From an uncultured archaeon (lineage in GTDB: Archaea; Asgardarchaeota; Thorarchaeia; Thorarchaeales; CAZPUN01): a stretch of DNA of 7,134 bases. Within the stretch, counting starts at the first letter, position 1; the number at the start of each line of letters is the position of its first letter. Position numbers and translations under genes: made by a program. The notes below the pieces were generated by a model. That model worked only from the letters and a program-made list of their open reading frames with translations, had not been told where the DNA came from and made no database searches. The stretch is taken from the NCBI GenBank assembly GCA_964589775.1, contig CAZPUN010000016.1, positions 1-7,134 on the forward strand. The letters are read 5' to 3'. Positions 831-7,134 of this stretch are shown here, one piece after another.

Positions 831-2855
831 ATGTCGGATAGAAAATATGGGTCAATTAACGAGTTGATAAATAGGATGGCAGATTTTAAACTAGTAGCGA
901 AATTCAAACCCGCAGGAGACCAACCAAAGGCAATCAAGCAGTTAGTGGAAGGTTTAAAAGCGGGATATAGATTTCAGACATTATTAGGTGTTACAGGTTC
1001 CGGCAAAACATTTACGATGGCAAATGTAATTAAGGAATACGGACGCCCGACTCTTGTTCTTACACATAATAAAACTCTTGCAGCACAACTTGCAGCAGAG
1101 TATCGAAGCTTTTTCCCAGAGAATGCTGTAGAATATTTTGTATCATATTATGATTATTATCAGCCGGAAGCATATGTTCCTTCGAAGGATCTATACATAG
1201 AGAAAAATGCAGACATAAATGAAGAAATTGATAGGATGCGAAACGCAGCTACTCAGGCGTTAATGAGTAGAGATGATGTAATTATTGTTTCCTCAGTTTC
1301 ATGTATATATGGTTTAGGAAATCCAGAGACATACAATAGTATGGTACTATTTTTACAAAAGGGAGATATAGTGTCTCGAAAAGCCATCTTGGATAGATTA
1401 ATCGCGCTGCAATATGAACGAAACGATTATGAAATTAAAGCAGGTAGTGTTCGGGTTAGGGGTGATGCCGTAGACATTTTTCCACCCAACATGAAATCAG
1501 GAATTAGAATCGAATTATGGGGGAACGAAGTAGATTCAATTTATGAATTTGAACCTGTATCTATGAAGAAAATTCGTAATTTAGAATCCGTAAAAATATT
1601 TGCGGCACACCATCATGTTGCAAAACATGAACATATCTTAGAAATAATTCCAGAAATTGAAAAAGAACTAGAAGAAAGAGTTGCCAAATTAAAATCACAA
1701 GGAAAACTTGTTGAAGCAGATCGCTTATGGCGACGAACACGTTACGACTTGGAAATGTTGAGAGAAACAGGTTATTGTACAGGAATTGAAAACTACTCAC
1801 GATATGTGGATAACAGGAAGCCGGGAGAACCACCATATACGCTATTAGACTATTTTCCGGATGACTTTTTAATGATTATTGATGAGAGCCACATGACAAT
1901 ACCACAAGTCCGAGGTATGTACAACGGGGATTACAGCAGGAAGAAGACCCTTGTCGAATTTGGTTTTAGATTGCCATCCGCATTAGACAACAGACCTTTG
2001 AAATTCCATGAGTTTGAAAGATATATGAGACATGTAATATTTACAACAGCCACTCCGGGACCTTATGAACTATCGGTTAGTTCTCAAATAGTTGAACAAA
2101 TTAATAGGCCTACTGGACTTGTTGATCCTCAAGTAATTGTAAAACCTATAAAAGGAGCAATCGATGACTTAATCGCCGAAATTAAAGAGCATATACGTTT
2201 AGGGGATCGAGTTTTAGTTACTACTCTGACAAAGAAATCTGCAGAGATGCTTGTAGAATATTTAATCGAGCATGAAATAAAATCAAGATACTTACACTCC
2301 GAAATTGGAACAATTGAACGAATTGAAATTTTAAGAGATTTACGTTTAGGAATTTTTGATGTGCTAGTTGGCGTTAATCTATTACGAGAAGGCTTAGACC
2401 TTCCAGAAGTATCTCTTGTAGCAATTCTGGACGCGGATAAGGAAGGCTTTCTTAGATCCCAATGGGCACTGATTCAAACAATGGGAAGAGCCGCGCGTAA
2501 TGTGCATGGGAAAGTCATTCTATATGCTGACAAAATTACAGATTCTATGAAACGCGCAATTGATGAAACAAATAGACGCCGTGCAATTCAAATCAAGTTT
2601 AACAAAGAGCATGGTATAACACCCAAAACAATCACAAAAGGAATAAGAGATATAGCTCAGGGTATCGAAACACAATCTATTAAGGACATTGTTCCAGAGC
2701 TTGGTGAGGCAGTATTAGATCTGGATTTGGAGACAATAATTATTGAACTTGAAAAAGAAATGAAACAAGCCGCACAAGACCTCGAGTTTGAAAGGGCAGC
2801 TCAAATTCGAGATAAAATCTTTGAACTTAGGAGGCAATTGACTAGTGGAAGCTAA
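831..2855 (+). CDS. uvrB: Excinuclease ABC subunit B (UvrB)
   Basis: Motifs present: FKPAGDQPKAI, Walker A GVTGSGKT, HNKTLAAQL, beta-hairpin YFVSYYDYYQPEAY, GIENYSR, DESH, GFRLPSALDNRPL, NLLREGLDLPEVSLVAILDADKEGFLRS, GRAARN, and the C-terminal UVR coiled coil EMKQAAQDLEFERAAQIRD. An alternative start at ATG 876 (MADFKL..., preceded by SD-like GAGTTGA at 861-867) is equally plausible. Confidence 0.98.
   Translation: MSDRKYGSINELINRMADFKLVAKFKPAGDQPKAIKQLVEGLKAGYRFQTLLGVTGSGKTFTMANVIKEYGRPTLVLTHNKTLAAQLAAEYRSFFPENAVEYFVSYYDYYQPEAYVPSKDLYIEKNADINEEIDRMRNAATQALMSRDDVIIVSSVSCIYGLGNPETYNSMVLFLQKGDIVSRKAILDRLIALQYERNDYEIKAGSVRVRGDAVDIFPPNMKSGIRIELWGNEVDSIYEFEPVSMKKIRNLESVKIFAAHHHVAKHEHILEIIPEIEKELEERVAKLKSQGKLVEADRLWRRTRYDLEMLRETGYCTGIENYSRYVDNRKPGEPPYTLLDYFPDDFLMIIDESHMTIPQVRGMYNGDYSRKKTLVEFGFRLPSALDNRPLKFHEFERYMRHVIFTTATPGPYELSVSSQIVEQINRPTGLVDPQVIVKPIKGAIDDLIAEIKEHIRLGDRVLVTTLTKKSAEMLVEYLIEHEIKSRYLHSEIGTIERIEILRDLRLGIFDVLVGVNLLREGLDLPEVSLVAILDADKEGFLRSQWALIQTMGRAARNVHGKVILYADKITDSMKRAIDETNRRRAIQIKFNKEHGITPKTITKGIRDIAQGIETQSIKDIVPELGEAVLDLDLETIIIELEKEMKQAAQDLEFERAAQIRDKIFELRRQLTSGS
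2829..2834 (+). promoter_or_regulatory. Shine-Dalgarno site (AGGAGG) for the first uvrA, embedded in the uvrB 3' end
   Basis: AGGAGG at 2829-2834 lies 10 nt upstream of GTG 2845. There is no other ATG/GTG/TTG in frame between 2845 and the conserved IIIRGA motif. Confidence 0.65.
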
Positions 2856-5722: not shown

Positions 5723-7134
5723 ATGGCTGATACAACTGAAAGTTTTCCAATCAATCACACCACCCAGAATATAGATACTAGAAGATACATTGTTGTCAAG
5801 GGTGCCTATGAGCATAACCTAAAGCACATCGACGTAAATATTCCACGGAACCGCTTAGTAGTAGTCACTGGAGTTTCAGGAAGCGGTAAATCAACACTTG
5901 TATTTGATACCATTTATGCGGAAGGACAGAGAAGATATGTAGAATCACTTTCGTCCTATGCGAGAAGGTTTCTCGGCAGGCTAGATAAGCCGAAAGTGAA
6001 TTTTATAGAAGGACTCCCACCAGCAATCAGTGTCGAACAAAGAAAAGCCAGCAAAAATCCAAGATCAATCGTTGCAACGACAACTGAAATTTATGACTAT
6101 CTAAGGATACTTTATGCGAATATTGGGAAGATGTTCTGTGTAAATTGTGGGGTTCCAGTCAATAAAAAGACTCCAGAAGAAATAGCAAATGAACTAATTG
6201 ATAAATATAATGGAAGCAGATTTATAATTTTAACACCTATTGTAAATTATACGGATTTCAATGAAACAATAAGCTCGTTAATTAAACAAGGATTTACAAG
6301 AGTAAGAATCAATGACGTAATATATAACATTGATTCCCAATTTGAACAACCTGATGACACAATAAAAAACTTTGATTTAGTAATAGACAGATCCGTAGCA
6401 CTAAAAGAGAATTTCGAACGCATTGTAGATTCCATAGAGCATGCATTACGACGAAATAAAATTGCTAAAATCCTCATCGTAGGTCATGAAGAGTATTATA
6501 TTAGTTCAGATCCAATTTGCCCCAAATGTGGCAAGACCTATCCTAAACTTGAGCCAAATGCTTTTTCTTTCAACAAACCACAAGGCGCATGTCCGGTCTG
6601 TAATGGACTTGGGACCAAACTCGAGATCGATATAAAGTCAATAATTCCAAATGAAACATTAACGATTCGTCAAGGAGCCATTAAACCATTTAAGCACAAA
6701 ATTGAAAAAATCGCAATGTTCGATGCGCTTGGTAAGAAATATGGGTTTAGCATCGATACACCATGGAAGGATTTACCCGATTCTGCAAAGGAAATCATAT
6801 TATGGGGTACAAAAGGTGAACCTGTAGAATACAAAGTAAATATACAATACTCTTCAGTATCTCAAACAGTTAAAGTTACTAAAGCATGGGAAGGAACAAT
6901 TCCAAAAATTCAGCGGTGGATTGATAATTCAAAATCTCAGAAATGGAGAATTAAGATTGCAAGACGATTCTTCAAGAAAATCAAATGCCCCGCATGCAAT
7001 GGAAGCAGACTAAGACCGGAAGTCCTGTCAGTTAAAATAGACGGAAAATCTATTGCAGATACAATACGATTGACAATCAAAGAAGCATATGATTTCTTTA
7101 CAAATCTGAATATTTCAGAGAGAGAAATGAAAAT
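5723..7134 (+). CDS. uvrA: Second UvrA paralog (UvrA-family ABC ATPase), partial, 3' truncated by window; 470 codons visible
   Basis: Manual translation of frame +2 from ATG 5723 shows no stop before the window end: [85 protein letters not shown]...KNPRSIVATTTEIYDYLR...CVNC...GFTRVRIND...VIDR...RIVDSIEHAL...CPKC...FSFNKPQGACPVCNGLG...CPACNGSRLRPEVLSVKIDGKSIAD... It is absent from the ORF track, presumably because it has no stop inside the window. Confidence 0.95.
   Translation, partial: MADTTESFPINHTTQNIDTRRYIVVKGAYEHNLKHIDVNIPRNRLVVVTGVSGSGKSTLVFDTIYAEGQRRYVESLSSYARRFLGRLDKPKVNFIEGLPPAISVEQRKASKNPRSIVATTTEIYDYLRILYANIGKMFCVNCGVPVNKKTPEEIANELIDKYNGSRFIILTPIVNYTDFNETISSLIKQGFTRVRINDVIYNIDSQFEQPDDTIKNFDLVIDRSVALKENFERIVDSIEHALRRNKIAKILIVGHEEYYISSDPICPKCGKTYPKLEPNAFSFNKPQGACPVCNGLGTKLEIDIKSIIPNETLTIRQGAIKPFKHKIEKIAMFDALGKKYGFSIDTPWKDLPDSAKEIILWGTKGEPVEYKVNIQYSSVSQTVKVTKAWEGTIPKIQRWIDNSKSQKWRIKIARRFFKKIKCPACNGSRLRPEVLSVKIDGKSIADTIRLTIKEAYDFFTNLNISEREMK

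Follow-up and report, generated by a model that had tools for sequence, protein, structure and literature searches.

Tandem, diverged uvrA paralogs downstream of uvrB in a Thorarchaeia archaeon suggest a heterodimeric UvrA

We describe a locus of a Thorarchaeia Asgard archaeon in which two diverged uvrA paralogs, here called uvrA and uvrA', follow uvrB in tandem, and we present comparative evidence that favors the pairing of their products. The locus lies in the window, a stretch of 7,134 nt that is the whole of contig C16 in a 2.16-Mb, 64-contig metagenome-assembled genome (MAG) with 96.75% completeness and 3.94% estimated contamination. Our best reading, to which we assign a probability of roughly 0.55, is that UvrA and UvrA' form a heterodimer. 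We favor this reading because the genome has only two UvrA genes and one uvrB, because UvrA' is complete and the two genes are adjacent in every locus fetched from relatives, and because other Asgard classes have an apparently orthologous fused protein, the two reading frames overlap by 4 nt in most relatives, and the fixed changes at the dimer interface are asymmetric. The window would then hold a nucleotide-excision-repair operon, uvrB-uvrA-uvrA', in which uvrA and uvrA' would be co-transcribed and coupled in translation to yield roughly equal amounts of the two proteins. UvrA and UvrA' would assemble as a pseudo-symmetric version of the usual UvrA2, and the heterodimer would scan DNA and load the single UvrB via both of its subunits. 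The pair would correspond, in unfused form, to the ~1920-aa double UvrA of other Asgard classes. More tentatively, and at slightly less than even odds, we propose that the heterodimer could be obligate and asymmetric, serve as the sole excision-repair damage sensor of Thorarchaeia, be related by fission or fusion to the double UvrA, and divide tasks between its subunits, for example which UvrB is loaded on which strand.

The features of the locus on which the argument draws are listed below; T1 and T2 denote copy 1 and copy 2.

831..2855, + strand: uvrB, 674 aa, with Pfam UvrB_inter, UvrB, Helicase_C, ResIII and UVR; the sole uvrB match genome-wide
2830..2834, + strand: GGAGG, a Shine-Dalgarno-like site for uvrA within uvrB, read in the sequence 10 nt 5' of the GTG at 2845
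2845..5721, + strand: uvrA (copy 1, T1), 958 aa, GTG start, a canonical class I UvrA
5706..5711, + strand: GGGAGG, a Shine-Dalgarno-like site for uvrA' within uvrA, read in the sequence 11 nt 5' of the ATG at 5723
5719..5725, + strand: junction of the uvrA stop and the uvrA' start, TAA-G-ATG (TAA 5719-5721, ATG 5723-5725, in another frame)
5723..7134, + strand: uvrA' (copy 2, T2), first 470 codons and 2 nt as far as the contig end, with the rest on contig C62
6017..6019, + strand: codon of UvrA' Pro99, which aligns with the dimer-interface S82 of C. thermocellum UvrA (Ct-UvrA)
6131..6538, + strand: UvrB-binding domain of UvrA', about residues 137-272, flanked by the two CxxC pairs of zinc module 1; Pfam UvrA_inter
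6419..6439, + strand: UvrB-contact helix of UvrA' (R233...E239); the corresponding residues in E. coli/Bst UvrA, via the 2r6f alignment, are R216/E222

The compact arrangement of these genes had been claimed by an earlier reading of the DNA alone (the original prediction), and each element of it can be read in the sequence: the 11-nt overlap of uvrB and uvrA (2845-2855), the start of uvrA' 1 nt past the uvrA stop, and a Shine-Dalgarno-like site inside the upstream gene for both uvrA copies. The arrangement is also conserved. The closest named relatives of UvrA' carry the name "Candidatus Thorarchaeota archaeon", and 22 of 30 relatives of the order, which represent 15 genera, have both copies on one contig, ~2.85 kb apart. 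In all 19 fetched loci of the order uvrA' lies directly 3' of uvrA, as expected if the tandem pair is maintained in relatives, and uvrB precedes uvrA in 18 of the 19, the remaining locus ending at a contig edge. The uvrA stop and the uvrA' start form a 4-nt ATGA or GTGA overlap in 15 of 16 relatives examined; the window instead has the 1-nt spacer and the Shine-Dalgarno-like site. The uvrA-uvrA' pair is a class-wide trait with the class sampled through one order only, because the class-level sample of 70 genomes comprises only this order.

Other UvrA- and UvrB-like genes were seen in the genomes of relatives. One relative (G026, L061:7415-9177) has its uvrB split over two frames of 365 and 267 aa, owing to a frameshift or to an error in sequencing. 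A third, unlinked, full-length UvrA of 943-979 aa occurs in several Asgard genomes, some of them from the order (L099-L105, L106:14895-17831). These third copies share ~44-46% identity with copy 1, group in a strongly supported clade of their own and deviate from the canonical residues at wedge and dimer positions (F66 to R or M, R54 to L or K). Additionally, some genomes of the order encode a lopsided double UvrA-like protein of 1619-1728 aa (L106:1932-6860, L107:1855-6711, L108:2574-7529, L109:1389-6572). Both the third copy and the lopsided protein are missing from the genome of the window.

Within the window uvrA' is incomplete, because it runs off the contig end. Because the window is an entire contig, the gene is cut by the assembly rather than by mutation, and its remainder can be found: the second UvrA-like match in the genome is a frame of 481 codons on the minus strand of contig C62, open at the end of that contig. 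At the end of contig C16, "...ISEREMK" is followed by 2 nt of an incomplete codon; C62, read as its reverse complement, opens with 1 nt and continues with "ILKEIRNRLKFL...GLDYITLDR...LSGGEAQR". When orthologs are aligned across this join, four codons (I-x-x-L) are incomplete or missing, which amounts to a 9-nt gap of compatible phase and to a joined length of ~955 aa, with no stop in 470 + 481 codons. A 957-aa relative, P0001, encoded on a 183-kb NCBI contig, matches the window part of UvrA' with 73% identity over 100% of that part, and the C62 part with 86% identity, ungapped, from P0001 residue 476. On NF001503, NCBI's UvrA equivalog profile, the window part covers positions 4-456 and the C62 part 462-941; their 482 + 854.2 bits, a plain sum of two pieces and not a single score, compare with a cut-off of 1147, and full-length P0001 scores 1366.8. 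The C62 piece carries the second Walker A, signature II, Walker B and the C-terminal CxxC...CxxC zinc finger, and the GC content of both contigs agrees with the genome. A tree of the C-terminal half alone leaves the C62 fragment unplaced, this region being too conserved. The join is based on reading phase, on the match to P0001 and on the profile coordinates, and it indicates that UvrA' is a complete protein split by an assembly break. The expectation that UvrA' would be full length, with signature I, the second Walker A/B and the C-terminal zinc finger intact, is borne out by the C62 part, P0001 and NF001503, and a truncated or frameshifted UvrA' is ruled out by the recovery of a complete protein from C16 and C62.

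Both copies have the domains and motifs of an intact class I UvrA, and they have diverged unevenly. UvrA and UvrA' share 43% identity over the N-terminal half; by domain, the first ATP-binding segment is 69% identical, the UvrB-binding domain 26% and the insertion (DNA-binding) domain 31%, close to the 71% and 29% that hand alignment had given for the first two. The CxxC pairs, together with PMC3025350 and PMC3167621, served to set the domain limits. Pfam UvrA_inter (PF17760), which describes the UvrB-binding domain, is found at E = 2.3e-39 in UvrA and E = 4e-18 in UvrA', and UvrA_DNA-bind (PF17755), which describes the insertion domain, at 7.5e-27 and 5.1e-26, respectively. The GxSGSGKS, LSGGE, DEPS/DEPT and EH motifs, which make up two ABC modules per chain, occur in both copies without variation across the ortholog groups, and all 12 zinc cysteines of the three zinc modules are kept in 22/22 sequences of copy 1 and 21/21 of copy 2. 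Thus, the ATPase modules, zinc modules, UvrB-binding domain and insertion domain that define class I UvrA (NF001503/TIGR00630) are present in both proteins. The uvrA product exceeds the equivalog cut-off with 1493.7 bits, and UvrA' is supported by its summed pieces and by its full-length relative P0001. Class II is ruled out for both copies by the presence of a UvrB-binding domain in each, and a fused double UvrA is ruled out for the window by the TAA that is followed after 1 nt by an ATG in another frame; the relatives in the order also have two genes. The divergence of the copies, together with their separate old clades, rules out a recent duplicate or an assembly repeat.

Constraint on each copy was gauged against 37 single-copy UvrAs (Asgard and bacterial), which define 270 alignment columns conserved in at least 90%. 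Fixed changes fall in six of these columns in T1 and in 11 in T2, none of them in Walker A/B, the ABC signature or the zinc cysteines. Inside each ortholog group identity is 62-87% by domain, and in the UvrB-binding domain it is 68% for T1 and 62% for T2. The latter values suggest constraint on this domain, and not necessarily specialization, because the T1 and T2 groups are shallower than the reference set. In this respect, the comparative evidence favors the pairing that the original prediction had proposed more than it does the specialization of the subunits, since nearly all of the residues that never vary in single-copy UvrAs are retained by both copies.

The UvrB-contact residues are likewise retained. 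According to a passage of PMC3025350 that cites Pakotiprapha 2009, alanine substitution in R216A/E222A disrupts the UvrB surface of UvrA. The equivalents of R216/E222 are kept in both copies; mapped through 2r6f they correspond to R233/E239 of UvrA', the Arg being invariant and the Glu nearly invariant in 21 T2 sequences. [quoted passage not shown] The runs agree in at least 92% of contacts, the partner has a predicted local distance difference test (pLDDT) value of at least 76, and the predicted interface takes in residues 232-240 of UvrA', the contact helix. Because a similar complex has already been solved, the prediction would show likeness to it rather than prove binding.

Two lineage-specific features of this region were also observed. 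Residues 140-280 of the window's UvrB (1248-1670), the UvrA-binding domain 2, have 40-50% identity to the order's other UvrBs, compared with 62-66% for the whole protein, and the UvrB-binding domain of the window's UvrA' has 31-38% identity to its orthologs, the UvrB partner surface having diverged alongside in this lineage. In addition, the 'PVVRGExG' loop in the UvrB-binding domain, at about residues 168-180 (6224-6260), carries a deletion of 2 residues in the UvrA' of the window by comparison with all 20 T2 orthologs from the sister family.

Differences between the copies at the dimer interface provide one line of evidence for pairing. In the ATP-bound state of Ct-UvrA, S82 contacts Y55 of the other subunit, and the Zn3 hairpin inserts its tip into a cleft that the partner subunit helps to form (PMC12796330, from which the interface contact pairs were taken). 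The residue at the S82 position is Ser in 37/37 single-copy UvrAs, 8/8 third copies and 22/22 T1 proteins, and Pro in 21/21 T2 proteins. In the fused double UvrAs of other Asgard families it is Arg in 9/10 N-terminal halves and Thr in 9/10 C-terminal halves. Each two-unit system therefore has a hydroxyl residue at position 82 in one unit and none in the other, a pattern that is suggestive, though not decisive, of a heterodimer keeping one of two symmetric contacts. The M508 position holds Val in both T1 and the fused C-half, Thr in T2 and Gln in the fused N-half, and the Zn3 hairpin tip reads FLPP in T1, FMSD in T2 and FLPD in single-copy UvrAs.

The fused proteins offer a second line of evidence. 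In a sample of 150 genomes of the phylum most families have a single uvrA, and two families (f5, with 10 genomes, and f27, with one) have one stop-free frame of 1917-1972 aa that contains two complete UvrA units, including in single-contig genomes. T1 and T2 form separate, well-supported clades across the order, which, together with the rejection of lineage-specific duplication, upholds the earlier description of UvrA' as an old, maintained paralog. The fused N-half groups with T1 in every analysis, with supports of 99 in FastTree, of 98 by the Shimodaira-Hasegawa-like approximate likelihood ratio test (SH-aLRT) in a 65-row tree under LG+C20 with posterior mean site frequencies (PMSF), and of 94 with 29 rows. 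The fused C-half is a long branch and groups with T2 in the 65-row LG+C20 PMSF tree (SH-aLRT 98). In joint approximately unbiased (AU) tests under LG+C20 PMSF and LG+F+G4, the best tree was ((T1,N-half),((T2,C-half),others)), with p-AU of 0.81 and 0.74, and a separate duplication in each lineage was rejected (p-AU 0.023 and 0.032); these tests used 29 rows and fast constrained searches, so that the constrained trees may be suboptimal. Moreover, T2 and the fused C-half share two derived residues, R430K and P771S, at otherwise invariant positions. We regard the correspondence of the fused N-half to uvrA as robust across these trees, and that of the fused C-half to uvrA' as favored by them, with ~0.8 of the resampling estimated log-likelihood (RELL) weight, and not proven. 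The two halves of a fused UvrA of Planctomycetota are each other's sisters (SH-aLRT 98), and therefore the fusion in Planctomycetota is independent of the archaeal pair.

The fused Asgard UvrA (L070-L079) is itself more degenerate than the split pair, with changes at 11 of the 270 invariant positions in the N-half and at 29 in the C-half. In the C-half these include an E for the Q that follows signature II, a D for the E that precedes the His of the module II H-loop, and SQ for the TT that follows Walker B II. Lost from the N-half are the His after Walker B I and the UvrB contact equivalent to R216, where S replaces R in 80%; the fetched loci of the fused protein have no adjoining uvrB.

Several of our observations weigh against a heterodimer. 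Most interface residues (R54, Y55/F, S58, F66, G80, L81, P83, I85, L507 and V510) are kept in both copies, and homodimers are therefore compatible with the sequence. The pairing of Y/F with S/P is not universal, since the T1 of the window has Tyr where its orthologs have Phe at the Y55 position, and single-copy UvrAs, too, vary between Phe and Tyr at position 55. In the phylogeny, the fused C-half is placed elsewhere in FastTree and in the 29-row quick tree, a topology that makes T1 the sister of the two fused halves stays within the AU limit (p-AU 0.32 and 0.30), and shared indels are mixed and lie in variable loops. Finally, we found no experimental determination of whether the fused double UvrA folds within or between chains. 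These points leave room for an arrangement in which UvrA and UvrA' form two homodimeric sensors, (UvrA)2 and (UvrA')2, that differ in lesion or DNA-context preference and share UvrB, or in which homo- and heterodimers are mixed. Such an arrangement would suit two complete class I proteins with intact ATPase sites, a mostly conserved homodimer interface and the UvrB contact residues in both, and it would place the greatest divergence, in the UvrB-binding and insertion domains, where a change of specificity is expected; relatives also tolerate additional unlinked UvrA paralogs. We nevertheless consider this main rival less likely than the heterodimer, given the strict adjacency of the genes, the near-universal 4-nt overlaps, and the joining of both lineages in one polypeptide in other Asgard classes according to the best-supported trees. 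Moreover, the invariant interface Ser is replaced in copy 2 only, and a UvrA' homodimer would thus lose both symmetric contacts.

It could also be argued that UvrA' is a decaying or regulatory copy (an incipient pseudogene, a decoy or a modulator) with no sensor function of its own, or even an artifact of assembly or binning. UvrA' does evolve faster than UvrA (terminal branch lengths of 0.58 and 0.31 in the 65-row tree), and its gene is split over two contigs of a MAG with some estimated contamination (3.9%). Against this stand the uninterrupted reading frame, the identity within the ortholog group, the 11 of 270 changed positions with none of them catalytic, the summed NF001503 score above the cut-off and the score of the full-length relative, as well as the presence of uvrA' on single contigs in >20 other genomes and the GC content of the two contigs. 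This explanation is largely refuted, and we give it a very small chance. The heterodimer of UvrA and UvrA' remains the reading that we prefer.

Beyond these genes, the window has a cupin-domain gene of 126 aa (311-691) on the same strand upstream of uvrB, and a PAP2 phosphatase gene lies 3' of uvrA'. The uvrC gene is located on a different contig of the genome. A scan for promoters and terminators found no enrichment, using bacterial models that are not applicable to an archaeal host. The genome holds two TBP genes, and among the control genomes the TBP family is limited to archaea.

The uvrA-uvrA' pair shares features with several known systems and differs from each. Like the canonical class I homodimer UvrA2B2 (2r6f/3uwx, 3pih, 3zqj, 9gxk), both window proteins have the full domain set, the motifs and the zinc modules, and the linkage to uvrB is found in many bacteria; however, the canonical protein is encoded by one gene, whereas the window has two diverged paralogs in tandem, a copy 2 with Pro for an invariant Ser, and an archaeal host. 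Class II UvrA lacks the UvrB-binding domain (PMC3167621), and class II paralogs such as D. radiodurans UvrA2, Ecm16 and DrrC are likewise UvrA-family genes additional to a canonical one; they are usually unlinked, whereas UvrA' is linked and has the domain with its contact residues. Planctomycetes have a double-length fused UvrA (PMC8567305). A protein of Simkania (Chlamydiae) was among the matches in our search for UvrA' relatives. Chlamydiae, too, carry a double-length fused UvrA. In both phyla two complete units likewise serve as the main UvrA, which implies a built-in pseudo-dimer, but they form one chain, while in the window a stop codon separates two genes. The fused ~1920-aa UvrA of Asgard families f5 and f27 has the same unit order as the window pair, with the N-half sister to copy 1 and the C-half sister to copy 2 in the best trees, and differs in being a single polypeptide that is more degenerate and, in the fetched loci, stands apart from uvrB. 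No description of a pair like this one was found in a literature search, with most subscription journals outside its reach, on UvrA heterodimers, tandem or duplicated uvrA, and Asgard or Thorarchaeota UvrA; a 2026 review says of Asgards only that UvrABC is present.

Our finding is a comparative one. UvrA is the textbook example of a symmetric homodimer, and, to our knowledge, strand-specific incision and the roles of the four ATP sites are still studied with engineered mutants that are always changed in both subunits. A natural UvrA encoded by two genes would allow mutations to be placed in a single subunit, whether in Walker A, in the UvrB-binding helix or in the zinc hairpin, and the split and fused Asgard proteins would provide two forms of the same machine for comparison. 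The pair also documents that the bacterial-type UvrABC system was remodeled after entering Asgard archaea.

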